The notes under the pieces are model-generated. The model ran no database searches and was not told the origin of the DNA. It was given only the letters and a program-made list of their open reading frames with translations. Below are positions 19,927 to 49,439 of a DNA stretch of 64,000 bases, one piece after another. This DNA comes from an uncultured Gammaproteobacteria bacterium. Lineage in GTDB: Bacteria; Patescibacteriota; Patescibacteriia; Magasanikbacterales; UBA922. The translations under genes and the position numbers were made by a program. Numbering within the stretch: the first letter of the stretch is position 1; every line of letters begins with the position of its first letter. The stretch spans positions 72,032-136,031 of the forward strand of contig CAZFTR010000002.1 in assembly GCA_964522405.1 (NCBI GenBank), in the 5' to 3' direction.

Positions 19927-19953
19927 TAAAAAAGCACCGCAATTGTGGTGTTT
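19927..19953 (+). terminator. intrinsic terminator
   Basis: gcaccgcaattgtggtg hairpin followed by ttttt. Confidence 0.6.
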
Positions 19954-19970
19954 TTGATTATATTATGTTT

Positions 19971-20210
19971 GGGGCCGCGGGGGACGACTCCATCTCAAAT
20001 GCAACTCGTGTGCTGCTCCCGTCCCCACAAGAGAGGCACAGGTTTACTCGACACCGCAAAGCCGAGGAATTACATAGAGAGGAGTCGTCCCCAAAGGATC
20101 TGGAGGGTGGCCGTCTAAGCCTGGTTATCAAGCAGACTCAGGAAAGCAGAGGAGAGTGTTGTCGGAGAGACATCGCCACCCTTGAGAATCCTTAGCGCGT
20201 ACAGAGCATA
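19971..20210. ncRNA. GC-rich structured element made of two stem-closed units; candidate ncRNA of unknown family
   Basis: About 60% GC in a 33% GC context. GGGGGACGACTCC at 19979-19991 pairs with GGAGTCGTCCCC at 20081-20092, and GGAGGGTGGC at 20102-20111 pairs with GCCACCCTT at 20175-20183. There is no SD-led ORF. Confidence 0.35.
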
Positions 20211-20324
20211 TCATGTTTATTAGATTTTGTCTAGTCCTGCATAATTTTTTCAGTCAGATTTTTTGATTATTGAGCATGTATCCTCTTTATGCTACAATTT
20301 ATCTATATTCTTATTATTTGATTT

Positions 20325-26758: not shown

Positions 26759-26983
26759 TCAGATCTCGATCTCCGGAATCGCCCTGTTGTGGCGGTCCGG
26801 CGGGTCGAAGGGCTCGTAGGCCGGCAGCTGGGTCGGCCTCAGCGAGGTCTGTCCTTCTTCTCCCTCGTCGTCCTCCTCTTCGTCAGTGTAGTGGCGCACC
26901 GGCTCTTCCGCAGGACGGTCAAGCCGACGAGTGTCATCACATGGGCCCGGTTCTGGTGGGCTCGGGTGATCCTCTTTGGGCAT
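26759..26983 (-). CDS. GC-rich small acidic Pro-rich protein (74 aa), unknown function
   Basis: About 62% GC. AGAGGAG Shine-Dalgarno sequence 7 nt upstream, TTGACA-17-TATCTT promoter at 27015-27043 (minus strand), and a terminator hairpin at 26673-26696. Confidence 0.4.
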   Translation of the reverse strand: MPKEDHPSPPEPGPCDDTRRLDRPAEEPVRHYTDEEEDDEGEEGQTSLRPTQLPAYEPFDPPDRHNRAIPEIEI

Positions 26984-27089
26984 ATCTGAACTCCTCTAGA
27001 CAATTCTATTATTGAAGATAGTATTTTTTATAGGTTTTGTCAATAAAAAAGAGCTGATTAAAGCTCTTTTGATAAGTTTTCCAAGAAAA

Positions 27090-31583: not shown

Positions 31584-31608
31584 AATTTATAGCTTAAAAC
31601 TACTAAAA

Positions 31609-31635
31609 CTCTGCTAAATTTAGCAGAGTTTTTTT
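31609..31635 (+). terminator. intrinsic terminator of hppA
   Basis: ctctgctaaa/tttagcagag perfect palindrome followed by T7. Confidence 0.7.
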
Positions 31636-31644
31636 GATCATATC

Positions 31645-31673
31645 TTGACAAAACAGGATTTTTGTGTTATATT
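31645..31673 (+). promoter_or_regulatory. consensus promoter of GC-rich cassette 1
   Basis: TTGACA, 17 nt spacer, TATATT. Confidence 0.5.
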
Positions 31674-31796
31674 AATTTGTTATTTTCAGGACTTCGTTCC
31701 AGCTTTTTAGTTGCTTTTTTAGGCAGTTGAAAAGCCGGAGCGGAGAATAGATAGAGAAAACGTTGCGGTCGCCGGTGCCGCAGGAGGGAAGAAGAT

Positions 31797-32240
31797 ATGG
31801 AGAGGTTGCTTAACCTCTGGGACAATTTCGCCGACTGGCGCTGGACCCCGGTCATCGGGATCTTGGTGGCTCTCGTGCTCATCGTCGGCCTCATTCGCGA
31901 GGCGTCGTACATGATCGGGATGGAGCCGATCATCGGTGAGCAGTTCGCGGCCGAGGTCGGTGCTTCCTACTGTCAGGCGGCTCACGCCGACCCGGAGTGG
32001 GGAGCTGCTGAGCTCCGGGCCTGTGGCGCGCGGCTCGAGCAGCTGGTCACGCCCGAGGAGTGGGACGAGCTCAAGCCGACGATCATCTCGGTCTACTCCG
32101 AGGAATGCGTTCCTGTCAACCTCGGCCTCTGCGCTGAGATCGAGGCTCGGTACAAGACGCTCGAGGACGATCCTCATCTCGGAATGCTCGTCGTGGCCCG
32201 CGACTTCGTCTGGCTGCGACGCGGCCTGTACGGAGACTAG
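31797..32240 (+). CDS. GC-rich small membrane-anchored protein (147 aa), unknown function
   Basis: GGAGGGAAG Shine-Dalgarno sequence 6 nt upstream, one N-terminal TM helix, four Cys in the soluble part, about 60% GC. Overlapping alternative-frame ORFs were rejected. Confidence 0.5.
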   Translation: MERLLNLWDNFADWRWTPVIGILVALVLIVGLIREASYMIGMEPIIGEQFAAEVGASYCQAAHADPEWGAAELRACGARLEQLVTPEEWDELKPTIISVYSEECVPVNLGLCAEIEARYKTLEDDPHLGMLVVARDFVWLRRGLYGD

Positions 32241-32277
32241 GCCGCGAGCCAGGTTCGAACGTTCATCTCGCGTTGGT

Positions 32278-32390
32278 AGGCGAGATTCTGTTCTTTTCTT
32301 TTACGCTTTCATTGGAGACGAAGGCGTTCCCGGCGACAACTACCAGTCGCCATCGGAACTATGTTTTTTTGAAAAAGAAAATATTGACCA
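32278..32390 (+). repeat. 110-bp 3' repeat module, copy 1 (nested hairpins plus T-run; terminator-like)
   Basis: Nearly identical to 32842-32953. Contains GTTCCcGGCGACaactaccaGTCGCCatcGGAAC followed by tatgttttttt. Confidence 0.7.
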
Positions 32391-32434
32391 ATAAAAAATT
32401 GCTTTCTTAAGCATTTTTTTATTTTCTACAGGTC

Positions 32435-32463
32435 TTGACAAAAGCTAAAATATATGTTATAGT
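32435..32463 (+). promoter_or_regulatory. consensus promoter of GC-rich cassette 2
   Basis: TTGACA, 17 nt spacer, TATAGT. The leader shares ttgttatttt..gttccag with the cassette 1 leader. Confidence 0.5.
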
Positions 32464-32534
32464 CTTTTGTTATTTTTTGTTCCAGTCTAGTAGTTACTTA
32501 TTAGGTGCTTATTAGATCGGAGTAAGGAGCCATC

Positions 32535-32840
32535 ATGGACTTGTCGGTTCGTTTGGATCGCTGGATTCTGGTATGGGTCATTGCTTCCGCGCTGGTCGTC
32601 TTCGGCGTGCTGGTGTTCTCCACCAACGATTGGATGGAGTTCAACAGCGTAAACGTTGAGATCGACTTCGTTGCCGTCAGACTGGCCTCGGTCGTAGACG
32701 ACAACTCCGAGCAGGAGCAGCCGACGGCCAGTCCGACCGTCTACGCTCTGCGTCCCGGAATCCGTCCCGGGATCAGGATGTGGGACCATTCGGCCCACGA
32801 GTATCGCGTGGTAGCACGACTCGACCACCCGCGCCGGTAG
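32535..32840 (+). CDS. GC-rich small membrane-anchored protein (101 aa), unknown function
   Basis: TAAGGAG Shine-Dalgarno sequence 6 nt upstream, N-terminal TM helix, PGIRPGIR repeat, about 58% GC. Confidence 0.5.
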   Translation: MDLSVRLDRWILVWVIASALVVFGVLVFSTNDWMEFNSVNVEIDFVAVRLASVVDDNSEQEQPTASPTVYALRPGIRPGIRMWDHSAHEYRVVARLDHPRR

Positions 32841-32841
32841 G

Positions 32842-32953
32842 CGGGATTCTGTTCTTTTCTTTTACGCTTTCATTGGAGACGAAGGCGTTCCCGGCGACAA
32901 CTACCAGTCGCCACCGGAACTATGTTTTTTTGAAAAAGAAAATATTGACCACA
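32842..32953 (+). repeat. 110-bp 3' repeat module, copy 2
   Basis: Direct repeat of 32278-32390 with 2 to 3 mismatches, followed by a further hairpin terminator at 32959-32982. Confidence 0.7.
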
Positions 32954-33291
32954 TAAAAAACACGTGTAAACCGTGTTTTTTTGTTTTGGTAAATTTCCTT
33001 GCCTCGCCCCGATTCTCACCGGGGCGAAGCTGGTTGGCGACCTTGGTCGCTCAGGTGATGCAGGATCCGCCGATCAGGAGACCGGCAAAAGCAAAGGCCA
33101 GCGCTACGACCCTGATCATGTGCCAGAAGTCGGTCGGCTGTCCGTAACTGCGTCCACTCCGATTGCTCAAAACTTGTCCTCCCAGACTACATTTTAGACC
33201 TTTTTTGCCTAATAGGTCAAATAAGGCTAAATCATTGACTTTTTAGGCATTTTAGAATATAATCAATCCACACTTATAAAAATTCAAATTT

Positions 33292-39274: not shown

Positions 39275-39682
39275 TCAGGGAGTCTCGCCCTCGTAGAGCT
39301 TGGGACAGTGCCGGCGCAGGCGGGCGCGCCAGCGATCATTGGCGCACTCAGCCGGGCACCAGAATCCGAGTCTGCACATCAGGCGCTCGGCCAGCCGGTA
39401 GCCGATCTCGCGGATGTCACCGACCGCCTGGGTGCCGATGAACCGGTGCGGAATCCCGCAGCGGTCGAGAAAGGTCAGTGCTCGGGTGCAGGGGTCGGTT
39501 TCTCTTCCAACCCAGCTGAACTCCTCGGAGATGTATCCGTCTTCGAGGGCGCGCGTCAGACGCGCGCCGAAGCCGAACTCGATGAGGGGTCTGGGGTTCC
39601 CTTCGACGATTTCACAGAGAACCAGGATGCCACGGTGATCTCTGTCACCGAGGATCCGCATCATGTGGCGGTATTCTGTCAT
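39275..39682 (-). CDS. GC-rich hypothetical protein (135 aa) with C-terminal Cys cluster
   Basis: About 62% GC. GGAGAAGG Shine-Dalgarno sequence, promoter TTGCAA-17/18-TAATAT on the minus strand (39710-39739), WCPAEC...HCPKL possible zinc ribbon, and a terminator hairpin at 39243-39270. Confidence 0.5.
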   Translation of the reverse strand: MTEYRHMMRILGDRDHRGILVLCEIVEGNPRPLIEFGFGARLTRALEDGYISEEFSWVGRETDPCTRALTFLDRCGIPHRFIGTQAVGDIREIGYRLAERLMCRLGFWCPAECANDRWRARLRRHCPKLYEGETP

Positions 39683-40582: not shown

Positions 40583-43411
40583 ATGAAAACCTACAAAGAA
40601 TTTTTAGAAAATGGCGGAGAAAAAAAATGGCAAGCAATTTGGGAGGAGAGAGAGCTTTTCAAAACTCCGGCAGACGCAACTTCTGAAAACAAGATGTACA
40701 TACTTCCACAGCTTCCATATCCATCAGGAAGCGGTCTTCATGTAGGTCATGCTGAAGTTTATACTGCATGTGATATCTATTCTCGTTATCAGCGCATGAA
40801 AGGCAAAAAAGTTTTGCAGGTTTTTGGACTTGACTCTTTTGGTTTGCCCGCAGAAAATTATGCAATCAAGACAGGGGTTCATCCCAAGCAAACCATTGAT
40901 CAAACCGGAGAAAATTTTGTTTCCCAAGTAAAAGATTTGGGAATTTCAGTAGACTGGGATAGATTTGTGCGTACCAGTGATGCGGATTATTATAAGTGGA
41001 CTCAATGGTTTTTCTTGTTGATGTACAAACGAGGATTGGCATATAGAAAAAAGCAGGCAGTAAATTGGTGTGAAAGTTGTAAAACAGTTTTGGCCAATGA
41101 GCAAGTTGTAGAAGGAAACTGTGAAAGATGTGACACAACTGTTGAGCAAAAACAAATGGAACAGTGGTATTTGCGTATTACTGAATATGCTGATCGTCTT
41201 CTTGAGGGTTTGGAAAATATTGATTGGCCAGAAGAAACCAAAAAGCGCCAAGCAGATTGGATTGGAAGAAGTGAGGGCGCTGAAATAGATTTTGCGATTT
41301 TTGGTTCAGAGCAAAAAATAAAAGTATTTACCACTAGACAAGATACTTTATTTGGTGCAACCTATATGGTTTTGGCGCCAGAACATGGTTTAGTTCAAGA
41401 ATTAAAAGAAAAAATCGAAAATTTTGAAGAAGTTCAAAAATATATAGACAAAACCAAAAAGAAAACAGATCTAGAGCGACAAATAGAACAGGAAAAAACA
41501 GGAATAGAGCTAAAAGGTCTAAAAGCTATAAATCCGGTAAATGGAGAGGAAATTCCAGTTTGGATTGCTGATTATGTACTCATGGGCTATGGAACCGGAG
41601 CAATTATGGCAGTTCCGGCGCATGATGATCGGGATTATGAATTTGCTAGTAAGTTTGGGATTGAAATTAGAGAGGTTGTTGCAAAGAGGTTTGGAGAGCC
41701 GGTTGAGGGGGCAGAGCATAGAGACTGTGTTTTTGGAGTTGTGGTAAGGAATGAAAAAATTCTTGTTTTGTATGATAAAGAAAATAATGAGTATCGTTTG
41801 CCTGGAGGTGGGTATGATGGAGAAGATGAAATCAAGGCTCTTGAACGAGAGTTGATTGAGGAGTCAGGTTATACAGATTTTGAAATTGGAGATTGTTTAG
41901 GAACAATAAATAGTCATTTTTATGCAGTTTTGAAAAAGGTGCAGAGATCAAAATTTTCAAGAGCATATGTGATCAATGTTAAATCAGACAATCAGCAGCA
42001 GGTTTCAGATGAAGATGCAGTTTACGAAATAAAATGGTTAGAGCCGGAAAAAGCTTTTTCGGCCTTAGAAGGAAACAAGGAAGACGCTGGAGAATACGAG
42101 TTTGTAAAAAGATATATTGAAAAAAGCAATTTCCACAATGACAATGGTGTAATGATAAATTCAGATTTTCTAAATGAATTAACAGTATCAGAAGCAAAAG
42201 AAAAAGCACTTGATTGGCTGGAAGAAAAAAAACTTGGAAATAGAAAAGTGCAGTATAAACTTCGAGATTGGTCAGTTTCGAGGCAGAGGTTTTGGGGTGC
42301 GCCGATTCCGATGCTTTATGATGAAAAGGGTGAGCTACAACCAGTACTAGAGGGGGATTTGCCGGTTATATTACCAGACGACGTAGATTTCAAACCAACA
42401 GGGGAGTCTCCACTTAATTACTCAAAATCTTTTAATGATGGAGTAGAAGAGAAATATGGAAAAGGCTGGAAACGAGAACCAGACACACTTGATACATTTA
42501 TGTGCTCAAGCTGGTATTTTTTCCGATATTTGGACCCAAAAAATGAAACAGAATTTGCCTCACCAGAAGCTCTCAAAAAATGGATGCCAGTGGATTTTTA
42601 TCTTGGTGGTCCAGAACATGTCAATGGGCATTTACTCTATGCTAGATTTTTCACCAAGGTCTTATTTGACGCTGGGTATATAGATTTTGATGAGCCTTTC
42701 AAAGTAAATAGACATCAAGGATTGATTTTAGGAGAAGATGGTAGAAAAATGAGTAAGAGATGGAATAATGTGGTAAATCCAAGTGATGTGGTTTCTGAAT
42801 TTGGAGCTGACACCTGTCGTATGTATGAGATGTTTATGGGGCCACTTGAAGATGATAAGCCGTGGAATATGAATGGTGTGAAGGGGATTAGTAGGTTTTT
42901 GGAGAGAGTGTGGAGATTGCAAGAAAAAGTTCAAGATTCTGTTTCAGATGAAAATCTAGAAAAATTAGTAAATAAAACAATTAAAAAAGTTGGTGAAGAT
43001 CTCTCAGCTCTTGGCTTTAATACTGCAATTGCAAAATTAATGGAGCTTTCAAATGCGTTTGGAAAAGCAGAGAGTATTTCAAAAGAAAATTTCAAAGTAT
43101 TTATCAAAATGCTTTCTCCATTTGCTCCTCATGTCTCAGAAGAACTTTGGAGTGATCTCGGTCATGAAAGTTCATTAATTCTCGAAACATGGCCAAAATA
43201 TGATGAATCAAAAATTATAGAAGAAAAACTAACCCTAGCAGTTCAAGTAAACGGAAAAGTTCGAGCAAATATCGAAATTGACGCAGAAGAAAACGAAGAG
43301 AAAATAAAAGAATTGGCTCTAAACCAGGAAAACGTTCAAAAATGGCTGGAAGGAAAAGAACCAAAGAAAGTAATCTATGTAAAAGGACGTTTGGTTAGTG
43401 TGGTAGTTTAA
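40583..43411 (+). CDS. leuS: leucine--tRNA ligase with an inserted NUDIX-box domain
   Basis: HVGH (HIGH) and KMSKR (KMSKS) motifs, zinc knuckle CESC...CERC and CP1 editing TTRQDT / MAVPAHDDRDYEF. A roughly 180 aa insert at about 41690-42235 carries a perfect Nudix box GGGYDGEDEIKALERELIEESGY. Confidence 0.9.
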   Translation: MKTYKEFLENGGEKKWQAIWEERELFKTPADATSENKMYILPQLPYPSGSGLHVGHAEVYTACDIYSRYQRMKGKKVLQVFGLDSFGLPAENYAIKTGVHPKQTIDQTGENFVSQVKDLGISVDWDRFVRTSDADYYKWTQWFFLLMYKRGLAYRKKQAVNWCESCKTVLANEQVVEGNCERCDTTVEQKQMEQWYLRITEYADRLLEGLENIDWPEETKKRQADWIGRSEGAEIDFAIFGSEQKIKVFTTRQDTLFGATYMVLAPEHGLVQELKEKIENFEEVQKYIDKTKKKTDLERQIEQEKTGIELKGLKAINPVNGEEIPVWIADYVLMGYGTGAIMAVPAHDDRDYEFASKFGIEIREVVAKRFGEPVEGAEHRDCVFGVVVRNEKILVLYDKENNEYRLPGGGYDGEDEIKALERELIEESGYTDFEIGDCLGTINSHFYAVLKKVQRSKFSRAYVINVKSDNQQQVSDEDAVYEIKWLEPEKAFSALEGNKEDAGEYEFVKRYIEKSNFHNDNGVMINSDFLNELTVSEAKEKALDWLEEKKLGNRKVQYKLRDWSVSRQRFWGAPIPMLYDEKGELQPVLEGDLPVILPDDVDFKPTGESPLNYSKSFNDGVEEKYGKGWKREPDTLDTFMCSSWYFFRYLDPKNETEFASPEALKKWMPVDFYLGGPEHVNGHLLYARFFTKVLFDAGYIDFDEPFKVNRHQGLILGEDGRKMSKRWNNVVNPSDVVSEFGADTCRMYEMFMGPLEDDKPWNMNGVKGISRFLERVWRLQEKVQDSVSDENLEKLVNKTIKKVGEDLSALGFNTAIAKLMELSNAFGKAESISKENFKVFIKMLSPFAPHVSEELWSDLGHESSLILETWPKYDESKIIEEKLTLAVQVNGKVRANIEIDAEENEEKIKELALNQENVQKWLEGKEPKKVIYVKGRLVSVVV

Positions 43412-43446: not shown

Positions 43447-44985
43447 ATGAAGCTTGAACAGGGTTTGAAAAAGATAATTAGTTCCCCAAGCAAGGCATTT
43501 TCAGTGCTTTGCTTTTGTTTTCTGCTCGGAGTAGCTTTTATTTCGATTTTAGATTTTAAGCTGAAGTTTTTTCACGCCTATATTTGTTTTTTTACAATTA
43601 TTTCATCTTTGTTTTTGTTTTGGAATAAAAAACAAATAAGATTTTCATTATTTTGCGTATTTTTATTTGTTTTTGGGATTATCAGATATGCTTTAGCATT
43701 TCCAATTAATCAAAATCATATTTCTAAGTATATAGATCAGAAAATTAGTTTTATTGGAATTATTACTGCTGAACCTGATGTGCGTATGGATGGAGTTAGA
43801 TACATTATTGAAAGCAGAGAGGTTTTGGAAGAGGAATCAAGTAAGAAATCAAAAGGACGAGTATATATAAAAGAAAAACTGTATCCGCGATACAGCTATG
43901 GTGATAAATTAGAAATTTTTTGCAGAATCCGGGAACCAGAACCAATTGAGGCAGATCCAGGATCAAAAGATAGAGATTTCCGCTATGATCGTTATCTGGC
44001 GCGTTTTGGAGTATTTGCAAATTGCCAAAATCCAAAAATAGAGGTTTTGGAAGCGAGTCGGGGGAATATGATCATGAGATCAATACTTTCTTTAAAAGAA
44101 ATAGTAGCCCGGAAAATAAACCAACTTTGGCATGAGCCCCACGCTAGTTTTATGGCAGGCTTGCTCTATGGTTATCGTGGAGGACTTGGAAGCTTGAATG
44201 AGCTTTTTAGTAGAACAGGAGTAACTCATATTGTTGCGATCTCTGGATACAATATTACAATTATTTCTACGATTTTGATCACAGTTTGTGTGCGACTTTT
44301 GATCCCTAGAAAAAAGGCTTTTTGGTTGATTGTTATTGGAATAATAGTTTTTCTTATTTTTGCCGGGCTTAGCGCCTCAGTTGTCCGAGCTGGAATTATG
44401 GGAATAATTGTTTTGATTGCAAAGCAGCTTGGTAGAGCAAGTCGAGTAGGAAATGTTATGTTACTTACAGCAGTTGTTATGACTCTGCACAATCCCTTTA
44501 TTCTTATTTGGGATGCAGGATTTCAATTATCTTTTATTTCAACTCTTGGGCTTGTTTATCTGACAAAATTTGTAGAAAAACCCTTTGAGAAATTACCGGA
44601 AATATTGGGAATAAAAGAATCAGTCCTTTCAACTTTGGCTGCTATTATTTCAACATTGCCGCTTATACTTTATCAGTTTGGGAGATTATCGATTGTCGCT
44701 CCAATTGTAAATGTGTTGATACTCTGGATTATTCCCTGGATTATGATTGTTGGTTTTTTTGGAGTTGTGGTTGGTTTTGTTTTTAAACCGATTGCAGTTT
44801 TACTTGCTTGGATTTCTCATGCAGGCATGGCATATATAATTTTGATTGTTAAATTTTTTGCTGGATTTAGTTTTGCAGCTGTGGATATGCGAGTTCCGAT
44901 TTGGTTTATGTTGGCTTCATACTTTGCAATGATTTGGTTTGTGATCAAATCAAAGAAATTAGAAAATAAAAAAAGCTCTGGATGA
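43447..44985 (+). CDS. comEC: ComEC/Rec2-family DNA internalisation channel (membrane competence domain)
   Basis: Polytopic membrane protein with DUF4131-like N-terminus and a Competence domain (GVTHIVAISGYNITI). Confidence 0.75.
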   Translation: MKLEQGLKKIISSPSKAFSVLCFCFLLGVAFISILDFKLKFFHAYICFFTIISSLFLFWNKKQIRFSLFCVFLFVFGIIRYALAFPINQNHISKYIDQKISFIGIITAEPDVRMDGVRYIIESREVLEEESSKKSKGRVYIKEKLYPRYSYGDKLEIFCRIREPEPIEADPGSKDRDFRYDRYLARFGVFANCQNPKIEVLEASRGNMIMRSILSLKEIVARKINQLWHEPHASFMAGLLYGYRGGLGSLNELFSRTGVTHIVAISGYNITIISTILITVCVRLLIPRKKAFWLIVIGIIVFLIFAGLSASVVRAGIMGIIVLIAKQLGRASRVGNVMLLTAVVMTLHNPFILIWDAGFQLSFISTLGLVYLTKFVEKPFEKLPEILGIKESVLSTLAAIISTLPLILYQFGRLSIVAPIVNVLILWIIPWIMIVGFFGVVVGFVFKPIAVLLAWISHAGMAYIILIVKFFAGFSFAAVDMRVPIWFMLASYFAMIWFVIKSKKLENKKSSG

Positions 44986-45328
44986 GCTTGGAATTAGTGC
45001 AGGAGTGATCTCGGGGCTCGCAGTGGCGCACTTCCGACCTTTTCTCGGTATGGGCGGCGGCTAATTGCCAGCCGGCCTCACCGTAAGGTGTTGGATAGTA
45101 CGCCACGCGAGCCCTCTAGTCAGATGCCGTGCATCTCGTTCTCCCCCTAATAGCCGCATGTGGCCCAGACGTAGTTTGGTTTCGTTGCCGTTTTGCCTCC
45201 GTGGTTTTGAAGTGGAGGTCTTGGCTCGAATTGGGCCGTCGTTGATTCTTCTGCTCGGCTATAAGCAGAAGAACCCGACGCAAATATTAAATCATAAAAA
45301 AGATTTTTTGTCAAGATTATCACTCTCC
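44986..45328. ncRNA. 343-bp GC-rich non-coding island (about 58% GC), candidate structured RNA or inserted element
   Basis: No SD-led ORF. It contains a perfect 10-bp hairpin TTCTTCTGCT/AGCAGAAGAA at 45246-45273 and other stems. It lies between comEC and the ComEC-type MBL gene. Confidence 0.3.
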
Positions 45329-46243
45329 ATGAAACAGATTTTTTACCTAAATTTAGCCATTTTTCTGCTATTTTCATCTGGTTTTTCATGTAAGAACTCT
45401 GATTTTGTGCAAAATCAAGGTAAAAAACAAGAAAAAGCACTAAAAATAACCTTTTTAGGTATTGGTCAGGGAGACGCCACACTTATAAAATTTCCAAATC
45501 AAGAACAAATGCTAGTAGATTGCGCGATTGACGCTCGAGTTATAGAAGCTCTGGGAAGAAATATGAAATTTCATGATAAAGTTATTGATTATCTACTCAT
45601 AACTCATCCAGATTCAGATCACTATGGAGGTTGTGTAGACGTGATAAATCGATTTGAAATAGGGCATATTATTTATAATGGATTTGAAAAACCATACAAT
45701 AGTTTTTGGCTTTCATTTATGGAAAGCATTGAAAGTGAAAGAAAAAAAGGCGCAAAGTATTCAATTATTGATAAACAAGAAAAATGGAATATTTCTGGAG
45801 TTGAAATAGATTTTCTTTATCCAGATCATGATTTGGCAGAAGATCCACTAGTTCCAGGAGAGAAAAAAACTAATAGTAATAATACTTCAATTACTTTGAT
45901 GATAAGTTATGGCAGAAATGATCTGTTGATAACTGGAGACGCAGAATTTGAACTTGAGAATTACTTAGTTGAAAAATACCAAGATCAGCTTGATGTCGAA
46001 ATTCTCAAAATCGGACATCATGGCAGTGACACATCTTCTATAAAAAAATTTTTAGAATTTACAACTCCGGAAATTTCAGTAATATCATCTGGAAAAGAAA
46101 ACCAGTATGGTCATCCTTCGCGAAGAGTTCTAAAAAGATTGCAAAGATTTGGCAGTGAGATCTGGCGAACAGACGCGCAAGGTGATATAATAGTAGAGAT
46201 ATATAAAAATGAAATTCATGTATCAAATAAAAAGGATTTTTAA
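45329..46243 (+). CDS. MBL-fold metallo-hydrolase (ComEC C-terminal beta-lactamase-like domain) encoded as a separate lipoprotein/secreted protein
   Basis: HxHxDH motif ([11 protein letters not shown]) and a signal peptide with a lipobox-like SGFSC. The start is set at MKQIFYL; the upstream GC-rich in-frame extension was rejected. Confidence 0.75.
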
Positions 46244-49126: not shown

Positions 49127-49164
49127 TTTTTTTATATTTAGTTACCAATTTTTGTTGTTTAGGG

Positions 49165-49294
49165 TTCATGTCATGAAGGCAGATGAGACAATCCGCAGCT
49201 CCCTTGCTTATGTCCCTGAAAGTGGGTGCCGTGTGAGTGCTGAAAGCAGATCAGCAAGAGAGGCGAGGACGGCGAAGCTGTCTTTATGACATGA
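49165..49294. ncRNA. GC-rich element closed by an 18-bp imperfect inverted repeat; candidate structured RNA
   Basis: TTCATGTCATGAAGGCAG at 49165-49182 pairs with CTGTCTTTATGACATGAA at 49277-49294, matching in 16 of 18 positions. The core of about 95 nt is roughly 58% GC. It sits 150 nt upstream of the response-regulator gene. Confidence 0.3.
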
Positions 49295-49439
49295 AGCTCT
49301 GTATATGGAATCAATTTATAATCATATTTAAAAAAGGGTAATCAATTTCCTATCCACAAAGATTTAATTCACAAAGATCTATATCTGGCGTATAATGGAA
49401 AATGGTACTTGATATAAAAAGGTACAATTAATAATTAAT

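Follow-up and report, generated by a model that had tools for sequence, protein, structure and literature searches.

The stretch of DNA that we analysed (the window, 64 kb in length) belongs to Candidatus Magasanikbacteria (Patescibacteria), judging by the labels of its ComEC homologues and of related loci, and has a GC content of 36%. On its plus strand lie comEC (43447..44985), which encodes a membrane protein of 512 amino acids with the DUF4131 and Competence domains of Pfam, and a stand-alone gene for a protein of 304 amino acids with the metallo-beta-lactamase (MBL) fold (Lactamase_B in Pfam; 45329..46243). We will refer to the second gene as MBL. The open reading frame of comEC closes with its own TGA, and Pfam finds no MBL domain in the protein.

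When we re-derived the ends of both reading frames, we obtained 44985 for comEC and 45329 for MBL, which leaves 343 bp between them (44986-45328), as the first-pass annotation of this DNA had stated. That annotation was also right to describe the membrane part as ending with its own stop and the MBL domain as a separate gene, and to note that the MBL protein begins with a signal- or lipobox-like segment: its hydrophobic N-terminus comprises 21 residues, the last of which is a cysteine.

The gap between the genes contains a GC-rich island. The first-pass annotation gave the GC content of the gap as about 58%, which holds for the core (0.57 across 45000-45285) but not for the gap as a whole (0.52). 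The core of the island ranges from 57% to 64% GC in a genome of 36% GC. The peak of 0.64 per 100 nt is about 3.6 standard deviations above the mean of the window (0.36, with a standard deviation of 0.078, per 100 nt). The sequence of the island is identical (100%) in three assemblies (the NCBI contig and the Logan assemblies of SRR8146441 and SRR8146440), so it is not an accident of assembly.

Separate comEC and MBL genes in related Patescibacteria

Taken together, the two genes that flank the island encode the three domains of the canonical fused ComEC (DUF4131-Competence-Lactamase_B, as in Bacillus subtilis), with order and strand unchanged. The first-pass annotation suggested that the island might have inserted into an ancestral comEC and split it, and that ComEC from relatives would show whether the protein is otherwise fused. 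We fetched 80 related loci from GTDB species representatives, 80 from JGI metagenomes, and the contigs of the closest homologues, and could place both genes in about 150 of the 164 related loci. In all of these (about 150 of about 150), comEC and MBL are separate genes. Similarly, the best 120 homologues of ComEC are all about 500 amino acids long and contain the DUF4131 and Competence domains only, without an MBL domain (120/120).

What lies between the two genes varies among the relatives. About 40 related loci have no insert at all: the gap is -100 to +12 nt, and many of these gene pairs overlap in different frames, typically at an ATGA. (We regard comEC and MBL as translationally coupled in relatives.) About 30-40 related loci have a gene for a SAM-methyltransferase of about 200 amino acids between comEC and MBL, and the remainder have other content. 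In the nearest relatives by ComEC (L084 at 76%, L086 at 73%, and L085 at 71%, over residues 206-504), the spacer between comEC and MBL is AT-rich and 20-112 nt long, and the island is absent. Furthermore, none of the MBL orthologues that we checked lacks a hydrophobic N-terminal segment of its own.

Because the genes are separate in relatives that lack the island, the split predates the island and was not caused by it. None of the relatives has a fused protein, and split genes in relatives without the island are what the first-pass annotation itself had named as speaking against its proposal. The comparison of loci indicates that the split is ancestral and that the island is unrelated to it. 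Indeed, separate comEC and MBL genes are an old, clade-wide, and published trait of CPR bacteria (Meheust et al., PMC6744442). In contrast to the canonical fused ComEC, the MBL domain of this whole clade, which is the homologue of the nuclease domain associated with ComEC, is a separate protein with its own anchor. The island is absent from almost all of the split loci that we studied and is not the cause of the split.

We therefore give almost no credence to the idea that the island entered a fused comEC-MBL gene and thereby split comEC. Deleting the gap of 343 nt, or the 328 nt that separate two A-rich repeats, does put both reading frames into one frame, and a terminator-like hairpin (described below) encodes the C-terminal residues of ComEC. 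The arithmetic of a fused gene restored by removal of the island is right, but frame agreement of this kind is expected by chance in one of three cases, and all of the relatives contradict it: their genes are all separate and often overlap in different frames, the nearest relatives without the island are split as well, and all of the MBL orthologues have their own membrane anchor.

Coding potential, folding, and searches for homologues

The first-pass annotation found no credible open reading frame in the island, and our results agree. The GC content by codon phase is flat (0.54/0.59/0.58, a spread of 0.06), while the spread in the GC-rich coding islands of the window is 0.23-0.31. A Shine-Dalgarno-like site precedes just one start codon, that of a mini-ORF of four codons on the minus strand (ATG CAC GGC ATC TGA at 45134..45120, behind GGGGGAG). 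A search of 5.8 billion protein clusters with a concatenated six-frame translation of the island gave no match at E <= 1, and no frame of the island contains a hydrophobic ORF, which would be a feature of type I toxin-antitoxin systems. The island is apparently non-coding.

The first-pass annotation also reported several stable hairpins, and the one that it named is a perfect 10-bp stem (TTCTTCTGCT/AGCAGAAGAA at 45246-45255 and 45264-45273). Relative to dinucleotide shuffles, the predicted fold of the island has a z score of -5.3 to -6.2 on the plus strand and of -7.0 to -7.3 on the minus strand, and on the minus strand none of 100 shuffles folds as well as the island does. As controls, two adjoining native gene segments have z scores of about 0, and the GC-rich coding islands of the window have z scores of -1 to -3. 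In the window, no z score is more extreme than that of the island.

When a structured, GC-rich island stands out in an AT-rich genome, it is typically a stable RNA, and the size of this island would suit RNase P RNA or tmRNA. Nevertheless, it is very improbable that the island belongs, in strongly diverged form, to one of the known families of housekeeping or regulatory RNAs (RNase P RNA, tmRNA, 6S, SRP RNA, a riboswitch, a ribozyme, or an intron). The first-pass annotation had proposed a covariance-model scan; this assigned the island to no Rfam family at the gathering score, and across the whole window Rfam 15 identified just 4 tRNAs at that score, all of them elsewhere. With a relaxed threshold (E <= 10), the region from 44900 to 45400 (501 nt) yielded two chance matches, with 14 and 6.6 bits. 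ARAGORN found no tmRNA, and conserved sequence blocks of RNase P or tmRNA were not visible by eye in the island. Also, a housekeeping RNA would not be absent from this position in all of the relatives, nor would it fail to align to everything. As for a retron msr-msd, there is no adjoining reverse-transcriptase gene: the neighbours of the island are comEC and MBL only.

Searches for related DNA were negative as well. With blastn and nhmmer, we compared the island to 83 and then to 167 fetched loci and found it in the same organism only; DNA similarity to the island was absent in 166 related loci. The island had no blastn match in collections of phages and plasmids, one exact 20-mer from it was absent from JGI metagenomes, and two of its k-mers were absent from IMG/VR. 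There is no second copy of the island in the 64-kb window.

A putative transcription unit on the minus strand

Next to the start codon of MBL, the minus strand contains a site that resembles a sigma-70-type promoter (45284..45314), which we read from the sequence. It consists of a -35 box TTGACA (45314..45309), a 17-nt spacer, and a -10 region TG-A-TTTAAT (45291..45286), so that TTGACA-17-TTTAAT matches the consensus at 11 of 12 positions. The promoter scan did not list this site because the -10 box lacks the conserved A at position 2. (An alternative -10 box, TAATAT at 45289..45284, has a 19-nt spacer.) The -35 box is 14 nt from the ATG of MBL and points away from it, that is, the promoter-like site is divergent from the MBL gene. 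The TTGACAAA of this site is also found in three cassettes elsewhere in the window (B, C1, and C2, described in the next section).

Downstream of the promoter-like site, the minus strand is predicted to fold into three domains. The 5' hairpin (45238..45279) holds the perfect stem. A central branched domain (45162..45237) has a CCUCC...GGAGG hairpin within a GGCCC/GGGCC closing stem. The 3' domain (44990..45155) is built around an imperfect hairpin of about 100 nt, with base arms at 45014-45028 and 45101-45114, and includes the small hairpin GATGC-ACG-GCATC and the mini-ORF of four codons.

At the far end of the island, the minus strand has a site like an intrinsic terminator (44963..44989), which was listed by the scanning tool: the hairpin AAGCTC-ATCCA-GAGCTT (44989..44973) is followed by TTTTTTTATTTT. 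The stem is 6 bp long with three G-C pairs, the loop is 5 nt, and TTTTTATTTT comes after it. The scan of the region found 2 terminator-like sites, as compared to 0.7 expected in shuffles. The stop codon of comEC is inside the terminator hairpin, and the last codons of comEC (KK-SSG-stop) are the complement of the T-run and the stem. On the plus strand, the same hairpin has no T-run after it and is not a terminator, which implies that comEC transcripts can read through.

The indicators of strand conflict, so structure alone does not determine which strand would be transcribed. For the minus strand, there are the tool-listed terminator, the TTGACA-17-TGaTTTAAT site, and a slightly better z score. 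For the plus strand, the fold has 11 G-U pairs as against 5 on the minus strand, its minimum free energy is slightly lower, and mirroring its structure to the minus strand costs 12 kcal/mol. The minus-strand unit also has two weak points: its -10 box lacks the conserved A at position 2, and the terminator stem is just 6 bp. Weighing these features of the sequence, we assign the putative RNA to the minus strand with moderate confidence.

If the plus strand were the relevant one, then the island might be a structured intercistronic leader in a comEC-MBL mRNA that controls the stability, processing, or translation of MBL. The plus strand does fold equally well (MFE -131.7; z = -6.2), with more G-U pairs. 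Also, the island has no plus-strand terminator except for one weak site, and MBL has no recognisable promoter on that strand, so MBL probably depends on read-through. We nevertheless consider a leader improbable: the island matches no cis-regulatory family in Rfam, it is the minus strand that carries the promoter-like and terminator-like sites, the analogous cassettes of relatives are unambiguously minus-strand units, and relatives do without any leader.

Our preferred reading, which we hold to be about evenly balanced between right and wrong, is that the island is a lineage-specific insert between two adjacent genes that have long been separate, and that it would be a minus-strand unit that yields an orphan non-coding RNA. 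Under this model, the promoter that abuts the start codon of MBL would drive transcription away from MBL. The product would be a GC-rich and heavily paired RNA of about 320 nt, with three domains, that runs from about 45280 to 44963. It would end at the intrinsic terminator, with its hairpin over the stop codon of comEC and its T-run complementary to the terminal lysine codons. As it has no convincing reading frame, we read it as an orphan small RNA.

The predicted RNA would be fully complementary to any transcript that reads through from comEC to MBL, so the effect that we would predict first is one in cis: by antisense pairing and by convergent transcription, the unit might uncouple the expression of MBL from that of comEC or damp it. 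Transcription from the minus strand, a non-coding function, and antisense action are what we infer from these features. The first-pass annotation had also considered that the island might be an independent structured RNA. The strong structure, the lack of coding signal, and the pair of promoter-like and terminator-like sites on the minus strand agree with that suggestion, while the missing Rfam match, homologue, and covariation do not. Having no homologue, the island offers no covariation that could support the RNA or reveal selection on it.

The predicted RNA can be compared to those from screens of GC-rich intergenic regions in AT-rich genomes, which find orphan small RNAs with Rho-independent terminators and cis-antisense RNAs (PMC6429828, PMC11109978). 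Like them, the island is intergenic, strongly structured, and free of ORFs, and its GC content is far above the background. At about 320 nt with promoter-like and intrinsic-terminator-like sites, and with complementarity to a flanking read-through mRNA, it also resembles them in its layout. Unlike them, it has no homologue in the relatives, metagenomes, phages, and plasmids that were searched, its -10 box is imperfect, and it belongs to no family.

GC-rich cassettes in the window and beside MBL in relatives

The window contains about seven further GC-rich islands. Five of these are small ORFs with a ribosome-binding site and strong phase periodicity: B (26759-26983, minus strand, 74 amino acids), C1 (31797-32240, plus strand, 147 amino acids), C2 (32535-32840, plus strand, 101 amino acids), C3 (33051-33170, minus strand, a peptide of 39 amino acids with a hydrophobic C-terminal half), and D (39275-39682, minus strand, 135 amino acids). 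The other two, A (19965-20215) and F (49160-49300), resemble the island between comEC and MBL in that they are structured and flat in codon-phase GC. In 4 of the 5 coding islands, the tool lists a TTGACA-type promoter, and a terminator-like hairpin adjoins; for D, a promoter that the scan did not list (TTGCAA-17-TAATAT) was read by eye. Rfam did not recognise any of the other GC-rich islands of the window, including A and F. The D protein had no homologue but itself among 5.8 billion protein clusters, and the C1 protein matched only itself and low-complexity noise in a search of 1.84 billion sequences that represent about 15 billion proteins.

We also surveyed the same slot in 129 non-redundant loci with an MBL gene. 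A GC-rich body lies directly upstream of MBL in 13 of them (about 10%), and in at least 7 of these 13 loci there is a minus-strand -35 box within 30 nt of the ATG of MBL. In L135, the gap is 343 nt; the minus-strand promoter (TTGACC-17-TATTAT) was listed by the tool and matches the consensus at 10 of 12 positions, and the body has a z score of -6.2. This cassette contains a coding-like, GC-rich ORF of 66 amino acids with a ribosome-binding site (phase GC of 0.67/0.44/0.80). In L011, the body is 327 nt long and phase-flat (z = -6.4), with a tool-listed TTGACA-17-TATACT promoter (11 of 12 positions) and a terminator on the minus strand where comEC ends; both L135 and L011 have an A-run and a hairpin there too. 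L093 has a GC-rich minus-strand block of three ORFs with ribosome-binding sites, and its minus-strand terminator (CAAGCTAATCAAGCTTG followed by a T-run) resembles that of the window. In L032, a cassette for a small membrane protein lies just past the end of comEC.

The layout of these cassettes recurs, and their bodies differ. In all-versus-all comparisons of 20 cassettes by tblastx and blastn, only the intervening methyltransferase genes matched. We considered whether the island might be orthologous to those of L135 and L011 and rejected this: local and global alignments were no better than those of shuffles, tblastx of the island against the L135 cassette gave chance-level matches only, and the carriers are not sister taxa. 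(We treat the equal gap length of 343 nt in L135 and in the window as a coincidence.) More broadly, the carriers of GC-rich inserts are not monophyletic in the tree of ComEC. Since the bodies are unrelated and the carriers are not sisters, we view the cassettes as independent occupants of a recurrent slot rather than as one conserved RNA. We count the island among a recurrent class of GC-rich cassettes, with promoters and terminators of their own, that are found at intergenic junctions in these AT-rich genomes and whose bodies are unrelated from species to species.

The island, with its promoter-like site, its jump in GC content, and its terminator, resembles B, C1, C2, C3, and D of the window and the cassettes of L135, L093, L032, and L022, whose promoters are of the TTGACA(AA)-17-TAnnnT type. 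Like the cassettes of L135, L011, and L093, it is directly upstream of MBL and divergent from it and has a unique, hairpin-rich body. It differs from the small-gene cassettes in its content: those have a ribosome-binding site, a start codon, and a phase spread of 0.23-0.31, whereas the island has no ribosome-binding site with a start codon ahead of a body-spanning ORF, no phase periodicity, and a spread of 0.06. Furthermore, the L135 cassette is just as structured as the island and yet appears to be coding, so a high degree of structure is a property of this class of cassettes and does not prove a non-coding function.

This similarity raises the possibility that the island is the relic of a GC-rich small-protein cassette, which lost its frame and kept its promoter and terminator, and whose RNA would have no function of its own. 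The type of its promoter-like site and its layout are those of the coding cassettes (B, C1-C3, and D), L135 and L093 have ORFs with ribosome-binding sites in the same slot and orientation, and a start (GGGGGAG-N6-ATG) remains, although the frame stops after 4 codons. But the island has no leftover codon-phase signal (spread of 0.06) and no protein similarity in any frame, and the place where an ORF would be expected is filled by the hairpin of about 100 nt. In addition, a dead GC-rich gene in a genome with AT bias should decay in GC content and in structure, and the z score of the island is the most extreme in the window. We think that a relic is possible but on the unlikely side.

It is also possible to see the island as a functionless element, similar to a MITE or a PATE, or as a piece of captured foreign DNA, with promoter-like and terminator-like sites that are incidental features of the AT-rich flanks. 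The GC content of the island is foreign to the genome, and GC-rich inserts at the same junction are patchy and non-monophyletic. An imperfect direct repeat of 16 nt (44958-44973 and 45286-45301, 81%) flanks the body, and a weak complementarity of 8 nt between the termini closes the whole island in the plus-strand fold. We rejected the 16-nt repeat as a target-site duplication: it is an A-rich sequence of low complexity that overlaps the -10 region, and the loci contain many A-rich strings like it. There is no transposase nearby, and the island is present in a single copy in the 64-kb window and is absent from 166 related loci. Moreover, random foreign fragments would mostly be coding, while the island has neither a phase signal nor a protein match, and the layout recurs in relatives with good promoters. 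An origin of this kind thus seems distinctly unlikely.

In its general character, the island does resemble MITE-like, PATE-like, or REP-like elements, as it is short, non-coding, patchy in its occurrence, and rich in hairpins and GC within an AT-rich genome. It differs from them in being single-copy in everything that was searched and in having no conserved ends or clean target-site duplication; in the window and the fetched loci, we found none of the multiple copies, conserved terminal repeats, and target-site duplications that mark MITEs and IS-derived elements. REP-like GC-rich hairpin repeats are found near the locus in three relatives (L075, L119, and L093). The island is not similar to them.

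To return to the cassettes, we tentatively propose, as a rather unlikely but broader reading, that the island may be one instance of an undescribed class of cassettes that Magasanikbacteria and related Patescibacteria have acquired in repeated, independent events at the same slots between genes. One of these slots would be the position just upstream of the stand-alone MBL nuclease gene of the DNA-uptake machinery, with the cassette divergent from that gene. As we conceive of this class, its members would be short, GC-rich (55-80%), and hairpin-rich cassettes in genomes of 27-42% GC; they would be complete units of the host type, from a TTGACA promoter to a terminator, with bodies that are unique to a species; and these bodies would have no homologues among about 15 billion proteins, with some of them encoding small orphan proteins and others being non-coding. 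As one fitting interpretation, GC-rich sequence that is foreign or novel would be captured, or else generated, by these organisms and then expressed at preferred promoter-proximal sites.

In summary, our result is mostly corrective: the split of comEC and MBL is old and published, and the island plays no part in it. What remains is a candidate for an orphan structured RNA that would converge on comEC and diverge from the nuclease gene; in this one species, it could modulate expression of the nuclease for DNA uptake. Of more interest than the island itself is the wider pattern of unrelated GC-rich cassettes in the window and in about 10% of the related loci, and specialists might be surprised that unrelated, self-contained cassettes appear repeatedly beside the MBL nuclease gene. 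If this pattern is systematic, then it bears on the origin of the orphan genes and RNAs of Patescibacteria and on the expression of foreign or novel sequence in streamlined genomes. And if the proposed class is real, then the capture or generation of cassettes would supply these ultra-small symbionts with orphan genes and RNAs.

Genes around comEC

In about one third of the related Patescibacteria loci, a gene for a SAM-dependent methyltransferase-like protein of about 200 amino acids lies between comEC and the gene for the stand-alone MBL domain (these loci include L004, L007, L012, L022, L023, L031-L051, and others). The conserved neighbourhood is therefore comEC-(methyltransferase)-MBL. The window has no methyltransferase gene between comEC and MBL.

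Upstream of comEC, the window encodes a leucyl-tRNA synthetase (LeuRS; 40583-43411, + strand) in which residues 383-500, C-terminal to the editing domain, form an inserted NUDIX domain. In contrast, the LeuRS orthologues of the closest relatives (L084-L087) have an alpha/beta-hydrolase insertion (Abhydrolase/Ser_hydrolase). At the other side, the end of the MBL gene overlaps the start of the next gene by 35 nt (46209-46243). This gene encodes a 479-amino-acid protein built from bacterial TSP3 (thrombospondin type 3-like) repeats, which has a signal at the N-terminus and a hydrophobic anchor at the C-terminus. The order MBL then TSP3-repeat gene is also found in L001 and L003.

GC-rich cassettes and repeats in relatives

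The relatives hold GC-rich cassettes that are unrelated to each other and have host-type promoters (L135:910-1252, L011:4944-5270, L093:4750-5745, L032:4255-4480, and L022:6850-7778; L071, L108, and L038 also bear cassettes). Several of these are immediately upstream of the MBL gene and in divergent orientation. The L022 cassette contains an ORF for a multi-pass membrane protein of about 290 amino acids; the GC content of this ORF reaches 0.80, in a genome with a GC content of 0.37. In the L093 cassette there are three ORFs that are GC-rich and have a ribosome-binding site.

Intergenic REP-like repeats that form GC-rich hairpins were also seen in relatives (L075:3090-3340, L119:1100-1190, and L093:4580-4730; examples are gtcattgcgag...cgaagcaatc and ccctctcctaccaggagaggg). 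They have no similarity to the GC-rich island between comEC and MBL (44986-45328).

Structured islands A and F

Island A (19965-20215) is 250 nt of intergenic sequence with a GC content of 0.55-0.61 and no coding periodicity. It is strongly structured, with fold z scores against dinucleotide shuffles of -5.6 on the minus strand and -4.5 on the plus strand. The scan tool listed a minus-strand promoter (TAGACA-17-TATGCT, 20233..20205), and it listed the adjacent hairpin (19930-19955) as a + strand terminator; by eye, this hairpin looks bidirectional. Island A had no match in Rfam, even at E <= 10. We consider it a second candidate orphan structured RNA, of the same type as the comEC-MBL island.

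Island F is a GC-rich intergenic element of about 135 nt between pilM and the next gene (49160-49300). It is closed by a long inverted repeat (GGTTCATGTCATGAAGG...CTTTATGACATGAAGCTC), its fold z scores are -2.7 to -3.4, and it had no match in Rfam.

Small-ORF islands B and D and the three cassettes of island C

Island B (26759-26983, - strand), which has the RNase Y and TruB genes on either side, contains a 74-amino-acid ORF (GC 0.64) with a ribosome-binding site and a promoter (TTGACA-17-TATCTT, 27043..27015). The predicted protein is acidic and proline-rich, and GC by codon position is periodic (0.71/0.47/0.75). Island D (39275-39682, - strand), flanked by two native genes, contains a 135-amino-acid ORF (GC 0.63, peak 0.71), again with a ribosome-binding site and codon-phase periodicity; a terminator-like hairpin adjoins it. 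Neither protein matched Pfam, and the island D protein matched only itself among 5.8 billion protein clusters.

Island C (31584-33291) comprises three consecutive GC-rich orphan cassettes: C1 (31797-32240, +, 147 amino acids) and C2 (32535-32840, +, 101 amino acids), both with an N-terminal hydrophobic segment, and C3 (33051-33170, -, 39 amino acids), whose C-terminal half is hydrophobic. C1 and C2 each have a TTGACA promoter (11/12), and C3 has TTGACC-18-TAAAAT (10/12). A search of 1.84 billion protein representatives gave no homologue of the C1 protein. A 131-nt module containing a hairpin and a T-run follows both C1 (32269-32398) and C2 (32830-32960), with 96% identity between the copies. 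This module is a 3' end that is common to C1 and C2, which are otherwise unrelated genes.
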